Of a stretch of 64,000 nucleotides of DNA, positions 5,862 to 55,390 are shown one piece after another. Under the pieces are notes generated by a model that was given only the letters and a program-made list of their open reading frames with translations, did not search any database and was not told the origin of the DNA. A program made the translations under genes and the position numbers. Source of the stretch: Patescibacteria group bacterium (GTDB taxonomy: Bacteria > Patescibacteriota > Patescibacteriia > JAHIZJ01); NCBI GenBank assembly GCA_028714495.1, contig JAQTMH010000001.1, positions 179,814-243,813 on the forward strand, given 5' to 3'. Position 1 is the stretch's first letter. Every line of letters begins with the position of its first letter.

Positions 5862-8309
5862 ATGGCTGAATCAATCGGAAAAGTAGCGCCCCGCCAAATT
5901 ACCGAAGAAATGAAGGAGTCTTATCTTGACTACGCCATGTCGGTAATAGTCGCCCGAGCCTTGCCTGATGTCCGCGACGGCCTGAAACCGGTTCACCGCC
6001 GCATCCTTTACGCCATGTGGGGCATCGGTCTCAGGCCCGGTTCAAAATTCAGAAAATCCGCCACGGTTGTCGGCGAAGTCTTGGGTAAATACCATCCCCA
6101 CGGCGACACCGCGGTTTATGATTCAATGGTCAGGCTGGCTCAAACCTTTTCTCTCCGCTATCCGCTGGTAGAGGGCCAGGGCAATTTCGGTTCAATAGAC
6201 GGGGATAACGCCGCGGCCATGCGCTACACTGAATCTCGTCTGGCCAAGATCTCCGAGGAGATGCTTTTTAATATTGAGAAAAAGACGGTTAATTTTATTC
6301 CAAACTACGACGGCTCCCAGGAAGAGCCCCAAGTCATGCCCGCCAGATTGCCCAATCTCTTGCTCAATGGCACTATGGGCATCGCCGTGGGCATGGCTAC
6401 CAACATCCCGCCTCATAATCTGGGCGAGGTGGTCGACGCGATAATCTGCCTGATTGATAATCCGAGTGCCTCGATCGAAGACTTGATGGAATTTGTGAAA
6501 GGACCCGATTTCCCGACCGGCGCCCAGATTTTCGGACTGAGCGACATCAAACAAGCCTATGCCACCGGCAAAGGCAGTGTGGTGATACGGTCAAAGGCAG
6601 AAATCGTCGAAGATAAATCAGGCCGCTTCAATATCATTGTCACCGAAATCCCCTACCAGGTAAATAAATCTCAGCTTCTGGAACACATTGCCAATCTGGT
6701 CCAGGAAAAGAAAATCGACGGCATTAAAGACCTGCGCGACGAATCTGACCGAGACGGCATCCGAATCGTGATCGAACTGAAAAAAGAAGCCTATCCAAAA
6801 AAGACTCTTAACCGCCTTTTTGACCTGACCCAGCTCCAGGATACTTTTCACTCCAATATGCTGGCTTTGGTCGACGGGATCCAGCCAAGAGTCCTAACTC
6901 TGAAAATGATTCTCGAGGAATATCTGAAGCACCAGCAAGAGGTGACCCGGCGCTATTTGACTTTTGATCTGGAACGGGCCAAGGAACGCGCTCACGTGCT
7001 TGAGGGCCTGAAAATCGCCCTGAAACAACTTGACCCGGTCATCCGAACGATCAAAAAGTCGAAAGATCGCGAGGAAGCAAAAGTAAACCTGATGAAACGC
7101 TTTCGACTGAGCGAGATCCAGAGTTTAGCCATTCTGGAAATGAAGCTTTCCCAGCTCGCCAACCTTGAGCAGCAAAAAATCTTGGATGAACTCAAGGAAA
7201 AGCTCAAACTGATCGCCGAATTAAAGTCTCTTTTGGCCTCGCCAAAAAAGATGCTGGCAGTGATAAAAAAAGACTTGCTCGAAATGAAAGCCAAATTCAA
7301 TAATCCCCGGCGCACCCAGGTCTTCCCCAACCCCGTCGATAAATTCACCCAGGAAGATCTGATTCCCAATGTCTCGACAATTGTTATGACTACTCGCGAC
7401 GGGTATATCAAACGAGTCGAACCGACGGCTTTCAAGACCCAGGGTCGCGGCGGCAAAGGCGTAATCGGCCTAACTACCAAGGAAGAAGACATGGTGGAGC
7501 ATTTCTTCACCACCATGACTCACGCCGACCTTCTCTTTTTCACTACCAAGGGCCGCGTTTTCCAGATGAAAACCTACGACATTCCCCAGGCCAGCCGCAC
7601 GGCTAAAGGCCAGGCGATCGTCAACTTTTTACAGCTCCCCAGCGATGAAAAGATTTCTGTGGTCCTGCCGCTTTCCGAACTGGGCGAATACAAATATCTC
7701 ACCATGGTGACCCGCGGCGGGGTGATTAAGAAAGTTGATATCGAAGAATTTACAAAGGTTCGCCGCTCCGGCCTCATCGCCATCCATATCAAACCAGGCG
7801 ACACGCTTGAATGGGTCAAGCCGTCAATCGGCCAGGATGATCTGATTCTGGTCAGCCGCGAGGGCAAGGCCATTCATTTCCGGGAAAAAGACGTCCGGCC
7901 CATGGGCCGAAGCGCCGCCGGCGTCCGCGGCATCAGGCTGAAAAAGGGCGATGAGGTAAGCGGCATGGATGTAATTCCTCAGGGAAAGATTCAAATTCAC
8001 GAACAGCTTTTGGTCGTAATGGAGAACGGCTTTGGCAAAAGGACCAATTTAAAGAATTATCGGATCCAGGGACGCGGCGGCACAGGCATTAAAACAGCCC
8101 ATATTACCCCGAAAACCGGTAAGATTGTTTCAGCCTTTATCGTCAATGCCAAACTGGAAAAAGAAGATTTAATAATCATGTCTGGCAAGGGACAAGTCAT
8201 CCGACTGCCCTTGAAATCCATCTCGGTTCTTGGCCGGGCAACCCAGGGAGTGCGTTTGATGCGCTTCTCAGAAGCGAATGATAAGGTCGCGTCAGTTACC
8301 TTCATTTAA
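5862..8309 (+). CDS. gyrA: DNA gyrase subunit A
   Basis: Canonical GyrA N-terminus: [34 protein letters not shown]; C-terminal beta-pinwheel repeats. Confidence 0.95.
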
Positions 8310-14245: not shown

Positions 14246-14738
14246 GGTACTAGATAAACTCATTTGATCCTAAACAATAAATTTTATTACCTAATCTTAG
14301 CCAAAATACCCTGTTGATAACTTATTGGCTCTAGGCATTGACAATTTGTCCGACATCTTCTATGCTTGGGGGCTTAGAAGACAAAACAAAATCTTTACAA
14401 TATAATATTAATAGTATCCGTGAGGCGATGAACTGCAGCCTGAATCTGGTCGCTTTCCCCCTAGAGTTTATTAAACTTTTGGGGGCGGGCTGCGGGGAGC
14501 TAGTAGCGAAACCGACATGGCGGAGGAAGTCCTTCGATACCAAAAACTGCCGCCGCCTCACGCCCAAGAGGCGTTTTTTGTTGGCCTGACCTTATTACCG
14601 GTTGCCTTTAGTGAAATACCTAAAGACAGCCGGTTTGTAAGGTTACTAAGCTCTTTGACAACACGGTGTAAGCGGAACAAAACGCCGAAATACAGCGCGA
14701 AGTTGTTTTCGGGGTTACCACAAAAAGGAGGACCGGTC

Positions 14739-25265: not shown

Positions 25266-26770
<1,505 letters not shown>

Positions 26771-26993: not shown

Positions 26994-27476
26994 CTAAACA
27001 AAAGACAAAACAAATCCGATTAATAGCCCAAAAACAAGAATAAAGCTGGCAAATTTCAATATTTTAGATTTCGGTTTTATCGAGTAATTCGTCATCGTCC
27101 AAATTTCGCGCATATATTCCTCGGCCATTTTATCGTCAGAATCGAATACCTTCTTCAATTTATCTTCGTATTCTTCGAGTCCTTTGTCCGAAAAACCCCA
27201 CCAGCAAATAAAACTAAGGCGTTCTTTCCGCTTTCCGCGAAAAGGAAGAAAAACAACAGTTATCGCCATAACGAGCGTAATAAAGGAGCTGATGGCCAGT
27301 ACCAAAAAATTTGAGGCCTCAATGCGAATCATACTCAATCCAAAGATAACCGCGGCGATGCCAACCAAGAAAGAAGCTTTCTGGTCCAAACTGCCCCGCA
27401 GGCTGTTTTGAAGAGTAAGTGAATCACGCAATAAATTAATCGAGTTTTGATTGACTACCATATTTTTATCGATCAA
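26994..27476 (-). CDS. hypothetical membrane protein
   Basis: 160-aa ORF with two central TM helices and one C-terminal TM helix; adjacent to tRNA cluster. Confidence 0.4.
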   Translation of the reverse strand: MIDKNMVVNQNSINLLRDSLTLQNSLRGSLDQKASFLVGIAAVIFGLSMIRIEASNFLVLAISSFITLVMAITVVFLPFRGKRKERLSFICWWGFSDKGLEEYEDKLKKVFDSDDKMAEEYMREIWTMTNYSIKPKSKILKFASFILVFGLLIGFVLSFV

Positions 27477-27570
27477 TTATCAAACTGCATAATCAAATTA
27501 TAACCATTAGTTTATCCATCGTTCTTGATTGGTCGGGGATCGCGGACTCGAACCGCGGACCTCTCGCTCC

Positions 27571-27846
27571 CCCGCCCGACTGCCATGTAATATTTCTGTC
27601 AAACTATTGGTTGGGACGGCGAGCCTCGGATTATAATCCGAGGGAAATTGCTGTCTTCCCGCACCGAGTCGGGGTGCGCGGACTTGAACCGCGGACCTCT
27701 CGCTCCCAAAGCGAGCGTTCTAGCCAACTGAACTACACCCCGACTCGAGGCAGGACGTGCTTCTGCACTACGCCCCGACCAATCGCTGGACTGAACAATT
27801 GTAATTATCAAAGTATAGAGCAACGTAAGCAGCCAGGGCGGGCGGG
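27571..27846 (-). other. 276-nt intervening sequence in tRNA-Pro carrying tRNA-Pro copy B; termini cccgcccg...cgggcggg
   Basis: begins cccgcccgccctggctgc and ends ggcagtcgggcggg in tRNA orientation; no ORF; no recognisable group I P/Q/R/S elements by eye. Confidence 0.5.
27669..27742 (-). tRNA. tRNA-Pro(TGG), intact, no encoded CCA, nested in the insertion
   Basis: cggggtg ta gttc agttggcta gaac g ctcgc tttggga gcgag aggtc cgcgg ttcaagt ccgcg caccccg a. Confidence 0.8.
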
Positions 27847-28046
27847 CAAAGCGAGCGTTCTAGCCAACTGAACTAATCCCCGATGAAAAAATCCCATGTT
27901 TGGGAAAAGCTTTTCTTGTTTTTATATTTTAAGCCTGTTTTTATTACCCGCTGGTGCCGAGGGCCGGAATCCCGCACCACGCAGGGTGCGGGACAAGTCG
28001 AACCAGCATAATTATGAAATGGGCCTCTTTAGTAATTCCGCCCAAA

Positions 28047-28119
28047 TGCCTGGGGTCGGAGTTGAACCGACGACGCAAGGATTTTCAGTCCTTCGCTCTA
28101 CCACCTGAGCTACCCAGGC
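28047..28119 (-). tRNA. tRNA-Phe(GAA), no encoded CCA
   Basis: gcctggg ta gctc aggtggta gagc g aagga ctgaaaa tcctt gcgtc gtcgg ttcaact ccgac cccaggc a; flanked by inverted repeat aattccgcccaaatgcc / ggcatttgggcggaatt. Confidence 0.85.
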
Positions 28120-28182
28120 AGGCATTTGGGCGGAATTGATTTCACAGTAGGATTATATTAGCATATTTCAGTCCGGAGTTCA

Positions 28183-28225
28183 CCCCGTGCTTGTCACGGG
28201 GCTCTACCGACTGAGCTACCTCGGC
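28183..28225 (-). pseudogene. tRNA 5'-half-like fragment fused to GC hairpin
   Basis: gccgagg ta gctc agtcggta gagc followed by perfect hairpin ccccgtg-acaag-cacgggg; no T-arm or acceptor 3' strand found. Confidence 0.35.
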
Positions 28226-28258: not shown

Positions 28259-28299
28259 TGGTGGGCGATCCAGGAGTCGAACCTGGGACCTCGTCATTA
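28259..28299 (-). pseudogene. tRNA 3'-half fragment (Ile-like), CCA encoded, no matching 5' half
   Basis: taatgacgag gtc ccagg ttcgact cctgg atcgccc a cca; closely resembles the 3' half of tRNA-Ile(GAT) at 28396-28472 but with a different acceptor. Confidence 0.45.
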
Positions 28300-28334
28300 C
28301 CCGCCCGACTGCTCCGCACTCGGAGGCGGGCGGG
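28300..28334. repeat. 35-nt palindromic element sharing termini with the tRNA-Pro intervening sequence
   Basis: cccgcccgactgctccgcactcggaggcgggcggg; termini cccgcccg/cgggcggg; same cccgcccgactgc start as the 276-nt insertion; abuts the tRNA 3' half in its anticodon-loop position. Confidence 0.5.
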
Positions 28335-28395
28335 TGACCCCGCACAACTCGCCAGAGCTCGTTTGCGGGGCAGGCGCGCTGAACTCACAGGCGGA

Positions 28396-28472: not shown

Positions 28473-28807
28473 ACCATCCGCCCATGCTATGTTCTAAAAT
28501 ACACTTCCCGCCTCGCACTCGACGAATAACACGAGGAGTGGTTAGAATTAACCATCTGCTTGCCCTGAACCATTACAGTACAGGGCTTGCCCCGAACCGA
28601 ACGACCGAAGGGAGTTCTGGTTCGGGGAGCTAATCGCCCTCGATCGGTTTTTATGGGGGCACTCTGACTATCCAAATCATTTGCCAAAAAATGTACGGCA
28701 ACTCCCAAACTTTAACAGAAATAGAATGTTTTGACAAGGGGTGCTATAATAACTATAGACTATGGGTATTATCATAATAACTCGATAAAAAGTAAACATT
28801 CAATATA

Positions 28808-35714: not shown

Positions 35715-35788
35715 GCGGGTATCGTATAGTGGTAATACCACAGGTTTCCAACCTGTTGCCGGGGGTTCGATTCCCCCTACCCGCTCCA
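35715..35788 (+). tRNA. tRNA-Gly(TCC), CCA encoded
   Basis: gcgggta tc gtat agtggta atac c acagg tttccaa cctgt tgcc ggggg ttcgatt ccccc tacccgc t cca. Confidence 0.85.
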
Positions 35789-35899
35789 ACTGTCAATAAG
35801 ATTAATCTAGAACAGTTCTCCGCCCCCTAATAAAAAATCTAATAAACGGCGGATCCCCGCCAGCCGTCGGGCAGGCACCTTTGGCGGAGATGGACTTTA

Positions 35900-35936
35900 C
35901 CCCGCTGCTCGCGAGCGGCGGGGCCTACCCGCTCCA
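35900..35936 (+). repeat. GC hairpin fused to copy of tRNA-Gly(TCC) 3' acceptor end
   Basis: ccccgctgctcgcgagcggcgggg + cctacccgctcca; 12-nt direct repeat ctacccgctcca with the tRNA 3' end 147 bp upstream. Confidence 0.5.
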
Positions 35937-35981
35937 AATAATTAGATTCAATATATTTAATTCAATTCTAATTTAACATCA

Positions 35982-37275: not shown

Positions 37276-37509
37276 CTAAGTTCCAAACATGCCTCTTAGT
37301 GAACTGAAGTCAGCAAACATAATCACACCTGCTAGAATTATCATTACTATTCCGATGAGTTGGATGAAAAAACGCGATCCGCCAAAAGTCGCGAATACTC
37401 CTCTTTCCGCTACACCGATCCGGCCATAAAAGCTTTGGATCCATTGTGGCTTAAGAGTAAAAACAAAACCGCCAGCCAAAATTAGAAATCCGATTAAAAA
37501 CTTCGTCAT
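37276..37509 (-). CDS. small membrane protein, hypothetical
   Basis: 77-aa ORF with two TM helices. Confidence 0.3.
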   Translation of the reverse strand: MTKFLIGFLILAGGFVFTLKPQWIQSFYGRIGVAERGVFATFGGSRFFIQLIGIVMIILAGVIMFADFSSLRGMFGT

Positions 37510-37529
37510 AAAAATTAAAGCTTATTTAA

Positions 37530-37604
37530 TGGTGGGCGCGGTAGGACTCGAACCTACGACTCTCTGCGTGTAGAGCAGATACTCTGCCACTGAGTTACGC
37601 GCCC
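37530..37604 (-). tRNA. tRNA-Val(TAC) with C at position 33 (tentative)
   Basis: gggcgcg ta actc agtggca gagt a tctgc tctacac gcaga gagtc gtagg ttcgagt cctac cgcgccc a cca. Confidence 0.65.
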
Positions 37605-37888
37605 AAAATAGCAGATGTTTAAAAAATATTCTAAAGAGGGGGGTCCCCATTGCAGTCTAAGGAGCGAAGCGACTGTTTGCGCTGGGGCAAGGGGCATGCG
37701 CCCTAAAGGCGGGGTGGAAACAGCTTGTCTGCTTACATGCGGGGGATGCCTTTGTTCTATGTCGGGGCCTCCATCGCGGTCTAAGGAACGAGAAGTGACT
37801 GAACGCGATGGGGAGAGGGGGCGCCTTGCTAAGGGTGAAGCGAACCGGACACCTCCGGTGCGCGTAACCCGCAGCAAGTGCGAACCCG

Positions 37889-37974
37889 TGGTGCCCAGGG
37901 CGGGACTTGAACCCGCACCCTCTTGCGAGGCTAGGCCCTCAACCTAGTGTGTATACCAATTCCACCACCTGGGC
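37889..37974 (-). tRNA. tRNA-Leu(GAG), long variable arm, CCA encoded
   Basis: gcccagg tg gtgg aattggtat acac a ctagg ttgaggg cctag cctcgcaagagggt gcggg ttcaagt cccgc cctgggc a cca. Confidence 0.8.
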
Positions 37975-38240
37975 AGGTAGATTACCTCTTTACATTATTT
38001 AAAATAACAAATATTAGTATTATACCAACCCAGAACCACGAGGGGGTTCTGGGCCCCGCACCTAACATGGTGCGGGGTTCCACCACCTGGGCAGGTAGAT
38101 TAGCCCTTTACCTTATTTGAAATAACAATATCTGCAACATACCGATTTAAACCACGAAGGTTCTTGTTACCTATCATTAATATTACGAGATTCCGACAAG
38201 CCCTGAACCCAACGTGGTTCAGGGCACCACCTGGGCAATA
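37975..38240. repeat. two degenerate repeat units upstream of tRNA-Leu, each a GC hairpin plus copy of the tRNA-Leu 5' end
   Basis: ccaccacctgggca(g/a) recurs at about 37962, 38081 and 38226; hairpins ccagaacc-acgaggg-ggttctgg, ccccgcacc-taacatg-gtgcgggg, ccctgaaccc-aacg-tggttcaggg. Confidence 0.5.
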
Positions 38241-38245
38241 AATCT

Positions 38246-38611
38246 CTAGGTCTTGCTTTTGGCTTTTAGGGTTTTTGATGCTTCTTTGACCGGACGGGCA
38301 TATGTATTGCGAAGATAATATAACTTTGCCCGGCGCACCTGGCCCTGTTTCACGATATCAATTTTGGCGATTCGCGGAGAATGAATAGGAAATATTCTTT
38401 CTACCCCCACACCCTCGGAAATCTTTCGGACTGTAATCGTAGCGTTAAGGCCTTGGCCGCCGTGCCGCGAAATTATCACCCCTTCAAAAATCTGAATGCG
38501 TTCTTTCTCTCCCTCGGTCACTTTTTGATGCACCCGGATGGTTTGTCCAGGTTTCAAATCAGGCAAATCGGTTTTTAGCTTCGACTTTTCGTTTTCCTTA
38601 AGAAGATCCAT
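38246..38611 (-). CDS. rplS: 50S ribosomal protein L19
   Basis: [83 protein letters not shown]. Confidence 0.85.
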
Positions 38612-38668
38612 AACAAAATAATTCAAATTATTAGACTAGAATAAGTATAGTCAAAACCCCTCTATCAG

Positions 38669-39595
38669 TCAACCCTGCCTAAGCTCAGTTATTATTTCTT
38701 TGAGTTGGGGAGGAAGGTCAATAAAAAACTTCTTTTCCTGACCAGCCGGATCGACCAAGGTCAAATGGTCGGCACAGAGGAACAGGCTGGTCCAGTGCTT
38801 TAAGCGGATATAACGTTTGATTTGATAAAGATTGTCGCCAACCAGCGGATGCCCTAAGCCGTGAAAATGAGCTCGGATTTGATGGGTTCGACCGGTCAGG
38901 GTGGTTACCTTAACCAGAGTGTATTTAGAAAACCTTTCGATAACTTCATACTCAGTCTCCGCCCATTTGGCGGGTTTCGTGCCAGGGGCGGTTTCTGAAA
39001 CACTGACTATTTTGCCGTCCTTTGAACGCTGCAGAAGGAAATTAATTGTGCCGCTGTCAGGTAAGCCCGCGCCGTAAACTAAAGCGGTGTAGCTTTTTTT
39101 AACAGCGTGAGCCTGAAAAAGCTTTTTGAAATGCTCAAACGCTTCCTGGGTGAGTGCCACGATCATTAAACCCGAAACTTCCTTATCCAGTCGGTGGACA
39201 ATGCCAGGACGCAAAGGGTCGTCACCAACTTTGATGATTTGAGGATATCTTGAAACCAAACCATTAACCAGGGTTTTGCTCTTGGTCGCCTCAGAGGGAT
39301 GGACGACCAGACCGGCCGGTTTATTGATTATCAGATAGTCGGGCGACTCAAAAACCGTCTCCCAGGTAATGGCCGGGTCAGGCGTTAAATCGATTTCCGG
39401 CGGTGATAATATTTCACCCGCGACAACATCGCCGCTCCGCAATTGCTGATGGGGCGAAGCGTCTTTCCCGTTGACCGATACCTGACCAGCGATAATCTGT
39501 TTCTGAATCCAGCTCCGGCTATAGCCCGGGAGCTGCAGACGAAGATAGATATCAAGCCGTTCTCCGTTTTTTTCGACTGTATATTTTATTTCCAT
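38669..39595 (-). CDS. rluD: RluA-family pseudouridine synthase with S4 domain (RluD-like)
   Basis: N-terminal S4 domain; LVVHPS...HRLDKEVSGLMIVA catalytic motif. Confidence 0.85.
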   Translation of the reverse strand: MEIKYTVEKNGERLDIYLRLQLPGYSRSWIQKQIIAGQVSVNGKDASPHQQLRSGDVVAGEILSPPEIDLTPDPAITWETVFESPDYLIINKPAGLVVHPSEATKSKTLVNGLVSRYPQIIKVGDDPLRPGIVHRLDKEVSGLMIVALTQEAFEHFKKLFQAHAVKKSYTALVYGAGLPDSGTINFLLQRSKDGKIVSVSETAPGTKPAKWAETEYEVIERFSKYTLVKVTTLTGRTHQIRAHFHGLGHPLVGDNLYQIKRYIRLKHWTSLFLCADHLTLVDPAGQEKKFFIDLPPQLKEIITELRQG

Positions 39596-41637: not shown

Positions 41638-41730
41638 GGCGCTTCTCCTTCTCTTCCGATGGGCTGTTCTAAAAAGAACGAGGGTTGTATGTGCTCGGGT
41701 GGGCGGGGTGATCTCCATCCCCCATCTTCC

Positions 41731-41807
41731 TGGTGCGCGTACCTGGACTTGAACCAGGGACCTCCACAATGTCAATGTGGCGCTCTAACCAACTGAGCTA
41801 TACGCGC
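41731..41807 (-). tRNA. tRNA-Val(GAC), CCA encoded
   Basis: gcgcgta ta gctc agttggtta gagc g ccaca ttgacat tgtgg aggtc cctgg ttcaagt ccagg tacgcgc a cca; flanked by ccatcccccatcttcc / ggaagatgggggat helix; partial copy aatgtggcgctctaaccaac plus hairpin cccccgtgaaaacggggg upstream. Confidence 0.85.
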
Positions 41808-42071
41808 GCACTAGGAAGATGGGGGATCAATGTGGCGCTCTAACCAACCTTGCCCCCGTGAAAACGGGGGTGAGCTAGACGCCCACCTGAACAAACAAAA
41901 TAAATTTAACGACATACATAATCACTTCTTACCTCATAGTGAGCATGCCCCGGATTATCCCCGATTAAATCGGGGACGGGGGACCCCCTGCCTTATAGCG
42001 ACGCTTCTGATATTATGGAAAGGTGTTGTAGCGTCGATATATCGATGACCTACCTATTTATTCACATTCTC

Positions 42072-42148
42072 ATGGTGGGCATGGATGGATTTGAACCATC
42101 GACCCCCGTCTTATAAGGGCGGTGCTCTAACCGCTGAGCTACATGCCC
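42072..42148 (-). tRNA. tRNA-Ile with TAT anticodon (tentative), CCA encoded
   Basis: gggcatg ta gctc agcggtta gagc a ccgcc cttataa gacgg gggtc gatgg ttcaaat ccatc catgccc a cca; same acceptor as tRNA-Ile(GAT); one C-A mismatch in anticodon stem. Confidence 0.6.
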
Positions 42149-42273
42149 ACCATGAGAATTAAATTGTATAGGTCATCGCTATAAGGGCGGTGTCCCGATC
42201 GGCTTGGCCGCGTCAAGACTGCCTACCCCAAAATATGCCCTAACTTTCCGCCAAATATATTCAATTTCTGTGG

Positions 42274-48534: not shown

Positions 48535-48715
48535 TTCTCTACCCTCCTTCTTGGCTTTTTTGGCCCAGATTTATCAAAGAACAAGGTCCTTTCCCAGTAA
48601 TTTGACCTTAGGCCGATTAGTTTAAAATGTCAATATAAAAACAAAACAACGGGGGTTAATAATCCCTGTCGTCTTTATTTAGTGTACCTCTTCCACTATC
48701 TAAGCGTTTATTGAC

Positions 48716-48758
48716 TGGAGCGGGAGACCCCGCCGCTCGCGAGCGGCGGGGCGACCTC
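48716..48758 (-). repeat. copy of tRNA-Gly(GCC) acceptor ends with T-arm replaced by GC hairpin
   Basis: tggagcgggaga-ccccgccgctcgcgagcggcgggg-cgacctc versus genuine tggagcgggagacgggattcgcacccgcgacctc at 48834; same hairpin as at 35900. Confidence 0.5.
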
Positions 48759-48833
48759 TATAACAATTTGGCGGAAGAGGTCGCACCTATATCGAATAAC
48801 AAAAACACCCGGTATAACCGAGATGTCTTTGAC

Positions 48834-48908
48834 TGGAGCGGGAGACGGGATTCGCACCCGCGACCTCTTCCTTGGCAAGGAAGCATTCTACTACTGAACT
48901 ACTCCCGC
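48834..48908 (-). tRNA. tRNA-Gly(GCC), CCA encoded
   Basis: gcgggag ta gttc agtagta gaat g cttcc ttgccaa ggaag aggtc gcggg tgcgaat cccgt ctcccgc t cca. Confidence 0.85.
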
Positions 48909-51439: not shown

Positions 51440-51630
51440 CCTTCGGGATGGGCCATCTTTTCGACCGAAGATTGGCAATATTTAATAGGGTATCCTGACT
51501 TATGGAGGAATTGCTCGTTGCGCCTTCCCACCCAGCCCATCACGATAGGCTGGACAGTGGCTTTTCACAACTTGCTTCTCCACTTACAGTGGCGGGACCG
51601 CGCTGGATTTTCACCAGCTTCCCCTTATAT
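51440..51630 (-). promoter_or_regulatory. cobalamin riboswitch
   Basis: minus-strand reading ggaagctggtgaaaatccagcgcggtcccgccactgtaagtggagaagc...aagtcaggataccc; diagnostic gguGAAAAUCC / CGGUCCCGCCACUGU core and B12-box-like AAGTCAGGA. Confidence 0.75.
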
Positions 51631-51785
51631 GTCTAATTGTTAATAAACTGCGACTTGACCTGTTGTTTTTTAATTCTAGTCTAAGCGTATTATGATGTCA
51701 AATTAGAATTCAAAATTCTAAATGTTAAATCATTGTTTCCGCCTCTCGACCCTGCTCTAGGCGGCTTCCTTCATTTTTAATTCTC

Positions 51786-55077: not shown

Positions 55078-55390
55078 AAGGAATTAGATCCCCGATTAAA
55101 TCGGGGACAAGATTAAAAATGTAAAAATTAATAAATAATAAGGAAAATTCGGGACTTAATTGAAGAGCAAAAAAAATTAAGCGGTTCTTCTGCCAATTTC
55201 ACCCTGCCTCCCACATCTCGTGCTGTGTTTATCAGTATAGCACAATTGTTCAGCCAGTGAAAAAAACAGTTAGCTTTATTTTTGGCTTATTTCAGGCCAG
55301 TAAACAAACGATGTGTGTCGGAAAACAAAATGGTGTGGATAACTTGATTGCTACTAGAGCGGAAAGCTGGATTTTCTTCAACTGGGCAAT

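Follow-up and report, generated by a model that had tools for sequence, protein, structure and literature searches.

Hairpin-bearing units and duplicated tRNA 5' ends between rplS and tRNA-Leu(GAG) in a Patescibacteria genome: a candidate scar of a small selfish cassette

Why should the 5' end of a tRNA gene recur, together with strong hairpins, immediately upstream of the intact gene? This question is raised by the tRNA-Leu(GAG) locus of a Patescibacteria group bacterium (assembly GCA_028714495.1), which we analyzed within a 64,000-nt stretch of contig JAQTMH010000001.1 (positions 179,814 to 243,813; hereafter the window, to which all coordinates refer unless another locus is named). As detailed below, comparison with relatives points to two homologous units, A and B, that were inserted between rplS and the tRNA gene. 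On balance, we favor the interpretation that this array is the scar of a small selfish cassette that invaded the tRNA-Leu(GAG) gene, i.e., a remnant or miniature of a homing-endonuclease-type cassette that lacks an open reading frame (ORF).

The intact tRNA-Leu(GAG), with an encoded CCA, lies on the minus strand at 37889-37974 (ARAGORN; Rfam tRNA model, 55.7 bits), and rplS, which encodes ribosomal protein L19, lies upstream of it on the same strand at 38246-38611 (identified by translation and by PF01245 on an identical protein), ending in a TAG stop codon at 38248-38246. Read along the minus strand, rplS is followed by a 12-nt tRNA-Leu head and unit A, then by a 15-nt head and unit B, and finally by the intact tRNA; the extra head copies are found upstream of the tRNA, in its own orientation, with start-to-start spacings of 144 and 118 bp. 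These values agree with the periodicity of 115-145 bp in the original prediction, which had also correctly taken the first copy for the 5' end of the real tRNA-Leu. As for its claim that a 14-nt motif occurs three times, a 13-mer, CACCACCTGGGCA, is indeed exact at all three places, but the full motif, CCACCACCTGGGCA (the reverse complement of a T followed by tRNA-Leu nt 1-13), is exact only at 37962-37975 and 38080-38093, and has one mismatch at 38224-38237. Similarly, the hairpins are tied to the copies as proposed, but do not precede them: in the orientation of the tRNA they follow the heads.

Apart from the shortness of the third copy (13 nt), nothing favors chance similarity or an assembly artefact as the source of these repeats, and we give such explanations virtually no credence. 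Five matches to CCACCACCTGGGCA with two or fewer mismatches were found against 0.26 expected, a count that none of 100 shuffled sequences reached. Moreover, the similarity is not limited to the 14-nt motif: copies 1 and 2 (37962 and 38080) share 51 nt at 92% identity, comprising tRNA nt 1-16 and 35 nt upstream, and the third copy lies exactly where the tRNA of the relatives starts. The proposal that units absent from relatives would indicate chance does not apply here, as the units are lineage-specific insertions and the 51-nt identity rules chance out. An assembly artefact is unlikely, given that two Logan assemblies built from separate runs (L001 and L002) match the region at 100% identity, the first of them over its full extent. 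These two short-read contigs correspond to window positions 41788-37234 (L001) and 41788-37945 (L002), and end inside tRNA-Val(GAC), tRNA-Ala and tRNA-Leu; contig ends inside tRNA genes fit the notion that the relics act as assembly-breaking repeats.

What did the locus look like before the units? Four related loci were fetched through their L19 or tRNA sequence: L083, L084/L085, L087 and L088. The metagenome search with the tRNA-Leu sequence returned only two loci, and the L19 search of genome contigs, in which the best match was 68% identical and most matches were from Streptococcus, found no close relative but yielded the Patescibacteria loci L017, L019, L022 and L024; among named L19 proteins, those of Patescibacteria and Kerfeldbacteria are the nearest. 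In all four relatives an intact tRNA-Leu(GAG) directly follows the rplS stop codon, without any repeat, hairpin or tail. The gap measures 12 nt in L083 (whose L19 is 93% identical to that of the window and whose tRNA-Leu is 100% identical), 16 nt in L084/L085 (L19 73% identical), 8 nt in L087 (75%) and 5 nt in L088. A multiple alignment with these relatives shows a clean 262-bp gap, corresponding to the 144 and 118 bp of the window, i.e., a filled allele in the window and empty alleles in L083, L084, L087 and L088. The junction is equally tight (4-14 nt) in four Saccharibacteria loci, and across eight other Patescibacteria loci the gap is 4-16 nt.

Because the four relatives and the four Saccharibacteria loci share the tight junction, we take it to be the ancestral state, to which the 262 bp of the window were added by insertion as two homologous units. 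The head next to rplS (relic 1, tRNA-Leu nt 1-12, GCCCAGGTGGTG, 38236-38225) is separated from the stop codon by a 9-nt spacer (38245-38237). It represents the ancestral tRNA head, since both its position and this spacer have their orthologues in L083, whose intact tRNA begins 12 nt past the stop codon; the head of the working tRNA-Leu came with the inserted DNA. Nothing in the empty site corresponds to the hairpins and tails, and foreign DNA was therefore inserted, as slippage or local duplication alone cannot make the first unit. In this respect the original prediction was half right: a local accumulation of degenerate tandem copies does not account for the locus, while its suggestion of scars resembling attachment (att) sites comes close to what the comparison with relatives revealed.

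Both units follow the same plan, namely the first 12 or 15 nt of the tRNA, one or two GC hairpins, a remnant of nt 16-23 and an AT-rich tail, and the last unit runs straight into the intact tRNA-Leu. In unit A (all features on the minus strand), relic 1 is followed by hairpin hp1A (CCCTGAACC-ACGTTG-GGTTCAGGG, 38224-38201), whose stem of 9 bp becomes one of 10 bp if the pair G38225-C38200 is counted, G38225 being the last base of the 12-nt head. Alignment with unit B then delimits a 33-nt segment specific to unit A (38200-38168) and a decayed second hairpin (38167-38145), after which come a decayed D-loop remnant, CGGTATG (38144-38138), and an AT-rich tail with 36 conserved nt (38128-38093). 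Unit B, on the same strand, comprises relic 2 (tRNA-Leu nt 1-15, GCCCAGGTGGTGGAA, 38092-38078), hairpins hp1B (CCCCGCACC-ATGTTA-GGTGCGGGG, 38077-38054) and hp2B (CCCAGAACC-CCCTCGT-GGTTCTGGG, 38053-38029), the D-loop remnant TTGGTATA (38028-38021), which equals tRNA-Leu nt 16-23 and recurs as the same 8-mer inside the tRNA at 37959-37952, and a 46-nt AT-rich tail (38020-37975).

The two units can be aligned through both hairpins, the D-loop remnant and the tail, with 78% identity and a 30-nt indel, and the last 36 nt of the tails, at 89% identity, are better kept than the rest. The stems of hp1A and hp1B differ at two positions, both of which are compensated. All three intact hairpins (hp1A, hp1B and hp2B) have perfect 9-bp stems, with folding energies of about -17 to -20 kcal/mol apiece, and are more stable than their shuffled controls; hp1B and hp2B taken together with the relic reach -40 kcal/mol (z = -4.5). 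Unit B looks younger than unit A, because its hairpins and D-loop remnant are intact and the second hairpin and D-loop remnant of unit A have decayed. Neither the tail nor the whole unit has another copy in the window or in the fetched loci, besides the match of the units to each other, and a viral contig search with the tail plus the tRNA head gave no match.

Could the array instead serve the host? In such a scenario, in situ tandem duplication would have produced leader or promoter modules with structured RNA (a terminator, attenuator or decoy) that regulate tRNA-Leu or the 3' end of rplS. The superior conservation of the 36-nt tail would suit this idea, as would the position of hp1A just after the rplS stop region, where it could stabilize the 3' end of the mRNA, and the extended -10-like sequence TGGTATAAT of unit B (38027-38019, minus strand). 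The latter, which consists of TTGGTATA and the next two bases and was read from the sequence, not called by the promoter scan, is the only promoter-like feature of the units and is built from the tRNA D-loop remnant. However, a scan for sigma-70-type promoters called nothing inside 37975-38240, and the array is not the promoter duplication raised in the original prediction. Likewise, no terminator-like sites were found in 37500-38700, and no U-tract follows the hairpins (the sequences after the stems are CTTGTCGG and TTGGTATA), nor did Rfam return any family in the inserts, either at the gathering threshold or at E <= 1. Furthermore, the units are missing from all four relatives, including L083 with its 93% identical L19, and are therefore not a conserved regulatory device, and the empty site offers no source for the inserted sequence. 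We consider this functional explanation very unlikely. As to how the tRNA is expressed, its transcription presumably proceeds by read-through from rplS or from the fortuitous TGGTATAAT of unit B. Since the insertion parts tRNA-Leu from rplS, with which it is contiguous in the relatives, the element may rewire the expression of an essential tRNA.

We turn to the kind of element that may have entered. In every tRNA-Leu copy of the window the duplicated segment begins exactly at tRNA +1, and the breakpoints at its other end differ, with unit A breaking off after nt 12 and unit B after nt 15. Including two cases from other genomes described below, the duplications measure 12, 15, 21 and 36 nt (the window twice, the tRNA-Ala of L084 and the tRNA-Ser of L022) and all start at +1. 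A transposon or miniature inverted-repeat transposable element would be expected to have terminal inverted repeats and a target-site duplication of fixed length; the units have neither, and their ends (CCCTGAACC.../...AATCTACCT) are not inverted repeats. The anchoring at +1, combined with a variable repeat length, fits selection for a working tRNA, and not a transposase with a fixed stagger. Group I and group II introns gave no family match at E <= 1 in 27300-49600, and the functional tRNA-Leu gene is uninterrupted according to both ARAGORN and Rfam. Bulge-helix-bulge introns were also considered, and no convincing motif was recognized by eye.

tRNA genes are classic landing sites for mobile DNA, and the units could be scars of the att type, left by larger integrative elements that encoded a tyrosine or serine integrase, entered the 5' part of tRNA-Leu, brought a replacement 5' segment and were later almost wholly deleted. 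Much of the locus resembles the attachment sites of phages and islands: direct repeats of 12-16 nt from the tRNA-Leu 5' end, at 38236, 38092 and 37974, bound the inserts, and the inserted DNA lies in a tRNA gene that stays intact because a copy of the displaced segment comes along, leaving a partial tRNA copy behind. Arrays can also build up at one such site and are typical of integrase targets. Nonetheless, the repeats are here the 5' part of the tRNA from +1, whereas it is nearly always the 3' part of a tRNA gene that integrases target, as Williams reportedly concluded in 2002. In addition, the units measure only 118 and 144 bp, have relics interrupted by GC hairpins and are homologous end to end, so that two independent deletions would have had to leave the same parts, which is improbable. 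The units contain no ORF, and Pfam detected no integrase domain in the adjacent ORFs; the equivalent units of relatives either have a GIY-YIG ORF or lack any gene, and none has an integrase or other recombinase. Scars of this type therefore appear unlikely to us.

The cassette interpretation draws on other Patescibacteria, in which the same layout recurs in three to four cases with a GIY-YIG ORF where the window has the tail. In L084 it is present twice, upstream of tRNA-Val(TAC) and of tRNA-Ala(TGC). In each copy, a tRNA 5' relic (nt 1-21) is followed by two GC hairpins, then by GAGCGC (tRNA-Ala nt 22-27) and a ribosome-binding site, and finally by an 88-aa ORF that extends into the intact tRNA. 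This ORF encodes a GIY-YIG catalytic domain (PF01541, E = 2.7e-15), whose nearest solved structures are the UPF0213 proteins 1zg2 and 1ywl; a search with the single protein sequence matched only itself, and a profile had to be used instead. Between the left edge of the double hairpin and about codon 73 the two L084 copies are 98-99% identical, and on either side of this stretch each is specific to its locus, which indicates that they were copied between loci recently. In L022 (Saccharibacteria), tRNA-Ser(CGA) nt 1-36 are followed by two hairpins, AAAACC (nt 37-42), an 80-aa GIY-YIG ORF and an intact tRNA-Ser, and in L096 (Microgenomates) a 26-nt relic, one hairpin and a GIY-YIG ORF precede tRNA-Val(TAC).

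At the rplS/tRNA-Leu junction itself, L024 (Wildermuthbacteria) presents an ORF-less version, in which the rplS stop codon is followed by a 7-nt tRNA-Leu head, then by two GC hairpins and by a 30-nt tail that leads to tRNA-Leu, and in L017 (Saccharibacteria) the junction is filled by a LAGLIDADG ORF that reads into the tRNA. Double hairpins are predicted to be stable in all cases examined. Among the small GIY-YIG ORFs of our Patescibacteria sample, 9 of 12 end no more than 45 nt from the 5' end of an intact same-strand tRNA or overlap it; the other three abut a tRNA-Ile relic, follow a tRNA-Tyr, and have no tRNA nearby, respectively. Finally, a crude screen of 90 sequences (the window and 89 loci, with 135 tRNAs) detected duplicates of tRNA 5' or 3' ends in Patescibacteria sequences only.

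If the array is indeed such a scar, the cassette would enter the DNA encoding the D-arm and bring along a copy of the tRNA's 5' part, so that an intact gene would be rebuilt downstream and the old head would stay behind upstream. The autonomous form would be the layout in which the tail is replaced by a small GIY-YIG (UPF0213-like) nuclease ORF, and it would spread in the manner of a free-standing homing-endonuclease gene: the nuclease would cut the tRNA gene, and repair would copy the cassette from a filled allele, with the relic head and the tRNA body serving as homology arms. The units of the window would be degenerate, ORF-less or non-autonomous copies. The hairpins could conceivably break up the relic, such that it neither folds with the tRNA body nor is cut again; other possible roles are to cap the 3' end of the rplS mRNA and, in ORF-bearing copies, to gate translation of the nuclease.

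Several observations weigh against this cassette interpretation. An endonuclease is encoded only in the analogous elements of other genomes (L084, L022, L096 and L017): units A and B contain neither a nuclease ORF nor a recognizable remnant of one, Pfam identified no nuclease or recombinase in 10 ORFs adjoining the tRNA clusters, and tblastn with the GIY-YIG protein gave no match anywhere in the 64 kb. The hairpins and tails of the window share no sequence with those of L084, L022 or L024, and it is by their shared architecture only that the units may be tied to the GIY-YIG cassettes. In addition, the relic at the tRNA-Val of L084 does not match the acceptor stem of the adjacent tRNA. GIY-YIG proteins of the UPF0213 type consist of the catalytic domain only and are not proven homing endonucleases, and their position next to tRNAs could reflect a cellular role. 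A simple homing model also leaves unexplained why a rebuilt tRNA with an intact target escapes re-cutting, and why the hairpins sit inside the relics at loop-coding positions. Lastly, the divergence of units A and B (22%) is about that of the window and L083 in non-coding DNA, so that the history of the array may comprise either two invasions or one invasion followed by tandem duplication through unequal crossing-over between the repeated heads.

The hairpins themselves could also be the primary mobile agent. According to this explanation, a GC double hairpin, akin to repetitive extragenic palindromic (REP) sequences or to double-hairpin elements, would insert at loop-coding positions of tRNA genes, the duplications and ORFs being secondary, e.g., products of rescue repair. 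Strong CCC...GGG hairpins in the window are almost confined to tRNA relic sites, where they are located at D-loop, anticodon-loop and T-loop positions inside the relics. Six of them, at three tRNA loci and all inside relics, form a family of the form CCCnGnACC-N6-7-GGTnCnGGG: the tRNA-Leu units contribute three members, a tRNA-Ile(GAT) relic has two in its D-loop, and a tRNA-Phe relic carries one in its T-loop. The stems of this family are compensated, with 92% of cells paired and a covariation score that none of 500 shuffles reached, although the count is biased in that the sequences were picked as hairpins. The sharp left edge of the 98-99% identical L084 core, which coincides with the edge of the double hairpin, also supports a hairpin agent. 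On the other hand, hairpin sequences are wholly different between lineages, and within the 64 kb of the window none was seen inside a functional tRNA or outside the tRNA clusters, making their mobility only presumed; nor does a hairpin agent by itself explain why the duplications start at +1. We regard it as rather unlikely to be the full account, and at the same time as a real alternative or a partial truth. An origin of the hairpins as fold-back copies of the adjacent tRNA was also examined: the hp1B stem shares 8 nt with the T-arm region of tRNA-Leu, but the same stem is present in the tRNA-Phe relic, and the idea was dropped as unsupported.

How far does the pattern extend beyond tRNA-Leu? 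Partial tRNA copies and GC hairpins lie near 9 of the 11 genuine tRNA genes of the window, bearing out the genome-wide pattern that the original prediction had described. A wider hypothesis, which we put forward tentatively and hold to be possible at best, is that Patescibacteria host a new class of tRNA-gene invader, composed of a GC double hairpin and a catalytic-domain-only GIY-YIG gene. Such an invader would enter at loop-coding positions and regenerate the gene either by duplicating its 5' part from +1 or, in nested cases, by bringing a whole replacement tRNA, and repeated rounds would produce the layered 'tRNA-in-tRNA' relics. A bolder version would have some hairpin-bearing or split outer genes still functional and processed by a novel bacterial pathway, for instance the outer tRNA-Pro described below, which is perfect once its 276-nt insert is removed.

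Selfish elements that invade tRNA genes and make good the damage they cause are of a known kind; here, it is the 5' end that is rebuilt, the units are tiny and the gene carried in relatives is a minimal GIY-YIG. We know of no function for the UPF0213 family, and the nuclease link, if true, would give it a role. It would also explain the tRNA fragments that litter Patescibacteria tRNA clusters, the breaks in short-read assemblies and confused annotation (e.g., the 'tRNA-???' calls of ARAGORN), and would provide a bacterial parallel to organellar endonuclease and double-hairpin elements and to archaeal disrupted tRNA genes. In the searchable literature, the coverage of which is incomplete, we found no description of tRNA 5'-duplicating (GIY-YIG) cassettes or layered tRNA relics in Patescibacteria, and novelty is thus not proven.

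Four known systems bear comparison. Phage T4 SegB is a free-standing homing endonuclease gene in a tRNA gene cluster (PMC2330249). The cassettes resemble it in having a small GIY-YIG ORF between or beside tRNA genes, in their presence or absence at a conserved junction, and in a putative spread by cleavage and repair. However, homing of the SegB type leaves no duplicated tRNA heads or double hairpins, and the ORFs considered here are of 80-91 aa with the catalytic domain only (UPF0213-like), or, in the units of the window, lacking altogether. In fungal mitochondria, an endonuclease ORF is said to arrive, in the case of atp6, with a replacement gene end, the original piece being left as a relic. 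The mitochondrial DNA of Allomyces and Schizosaccharomyces contains GC-rich double-hairpin elements (DHEs) that are presumed to be mobile (PMC10085805, after Paquin et al. 2000). The likeness thus extends from a GIY-YIG or LAGLIDADG ORF accompanied by a replacement gene piece to the two adjacent GC-rich hairpins at such sites. The fungal cases differ in being organellar, in concerning protein genes and in duplicating the 3' end, in contrast to bacterial tRNA genes duplicated at the 5' end from +1, and there is no sequence relationship.

Disrupted tRNA genes of archaea, as presented in the part of PMC10714607 that cites Fujishima et al. 2009 and 2010, include transposable short introns at non-canonical positions and split tRNAs. 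In that account, they share with our locus short structured inserts at D-, anticodon- and T-loop positions, and tRNAs in pieces with GC-rich complementary flanks; there, the inserts are bulge-helix-bulge introns that a splicing endonuclease cuts from functional genes. The hairpins found here, by contrast, are bacterial, are confined to redundant relics beside an uninterrupted tRNA and have no identified bulge-helix-bulge motif. Group I introns have been reported in Patescibacteria tRNA genes, with position 35/36 as an insertion site (PMC13011429), in a study that makes no mention of GIY-YIG genes, duplications or hairpins. The phylum, the use of tRNA genes as targets of selfish elements and position 35/36 are common to both, but none of the inserts here has a group I or group II signal at E <= 1, and the functional tRNA-Leu is uninterrupted. 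Insertions in rRNA genes of the candidate phyla radiation (CPR) have also been described (PMC11270868).

Other tRNA genes of the window present layered arrangements of their own. At 27530-27882 (minus strand), the 5' half of an outer tRNA-Pro (nt 1-35, 27882-27847) and its 3' half (nt 36-76 plus CCA, 27570-27530) join into a perfect tRNA-Pro(TGG) according to ARAGORN, and are separated by a 276-nt insert at position 35/36. The insert contains the annotated tRNA-Pro (27668-27742), whose acceptor pairs are different but compensated, with U-A and G-C at 6:67 and 7:66 where the outer sequence has A-U and U-A. The ends of the insert, CCCGCCCGCC... and ...CAGTCGGGCGGG, are mutually complementary. 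The same termini, in the form CCCGCCCGCC-13 nt-CAGTCGGGCGGG, precede a 3'-half relic of an older tRNA-Ile(GAT), which ARAGORN called as 'tRNA-???' with a 4-base anticodon. The relic region of tRNA-Ile(GAT) covers 28259-28354 and 28549-28639 on the minus strand; upstream of the working gene, at 28639-28627, is the 5' head that matches this relic, GGGCGATTAGCTC, with two GC hairpins inserted in its D-loop. At 27952-28225 (minus strand), an older tRNA-Phe wraps the working one (28046-28120): its 5' part (28225-28166) has a hairpin at position 25/26, and its 3' end, CCCTCGGCACCA, is found at 27963-27952, with a further hairpin (27993-27970) in the T-loop.

The working tRNA-Ile(GAT), tRNA-Phe, tRNA-Val(GAC), tRNA-Ile(TAT) and tRNA-Cys are each flanked by 10-13-nt perfect inverted repeats (28473-28482/28390-28399, 28121-28137/28034-28050, 41814-41826/41718-41730, 42149-42158/42067-42076 and 49118-49130/49027-49039, respectively). 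These repeats lengthen the acceptor stem, including the CCA where it is encoded, to about 17-21 bp, and could be either a processing helix or cassette ends; the stem extension of tRNA-Ile(TAT) is perfect in the window and has one mismatch in L084. Nesting around tRNA-Ile(TAT) and tRNA-Val(GAC), in the order outer half, structured flanks, inner gene and other outer half, is common to window positions 41698-42191 and L084 positions 6300-6960, with three layers for the tRNA-Ile(TAT) of L084. As this nesting is kept between the window and the distant L084 (L19 73% identical), it is either old or recurs at the same sites. In L088, a 3' duplicate follows tRNA-Gly(GCC), comparable to those at 35776-35937 (plus strand) and 48711-48845 (minus strand) of the window. 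In L008, a Parcubacteria metagenome-assembled genome, a tRNA-Val(TAC)-like sequence (1440-1533) that ARAGORN does not call follows rplS, with its 5' acceptor strand replaced by GGGGCCTGT and a short hairpin, GGGAGAAATCCC.

Downstream of tRNA-Leu, a GC-rich spacer of 284 nt (37605-37888, minus strand) separates it from tRNA-Val(TAC). It has no Rfam family match and holds a fragment resembling tRNA-Ala, CGGAGGTGTCCGGTTCG (37857-37841), as well as an internal repeat of about 124 nt, in which 37640-37667 and 37764-37791 are 82% identical; the spacer is kept in L083, whereas in L084 1.5 kb take its place. A 19-nt palindrome, TCCCCGATTAAATCGGGGA, is present in two identical copies, one inside the outer relic of tRNA-Ile(TAT) (41958-41976) and the other 13 kb away (55089-55107). 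Elsewhere in the window, Rfam identified a c-di-GMP-II-GAG riboswitch at 14412-14526 (plus strand; 45.2 bits, gathering threshold 40) and a cobalamin riboswitch at 51468-51659 (minus strand; 88.5 bits). A complete 16S rRNA gene occupies 25266-26770 (plus strand); no 23S rRNA gene lies within the window and the next genes are tRNAs on the opposite strand, such that the rRNA genes appear to be unlinked. Beside the tRNA-Pro cluster, a 160-aa ORF (26994-27476, minus strand) weakly matches the Pycsar effector transmembrane domain (PF18967, 27.6 bits, cutoff 27.2).

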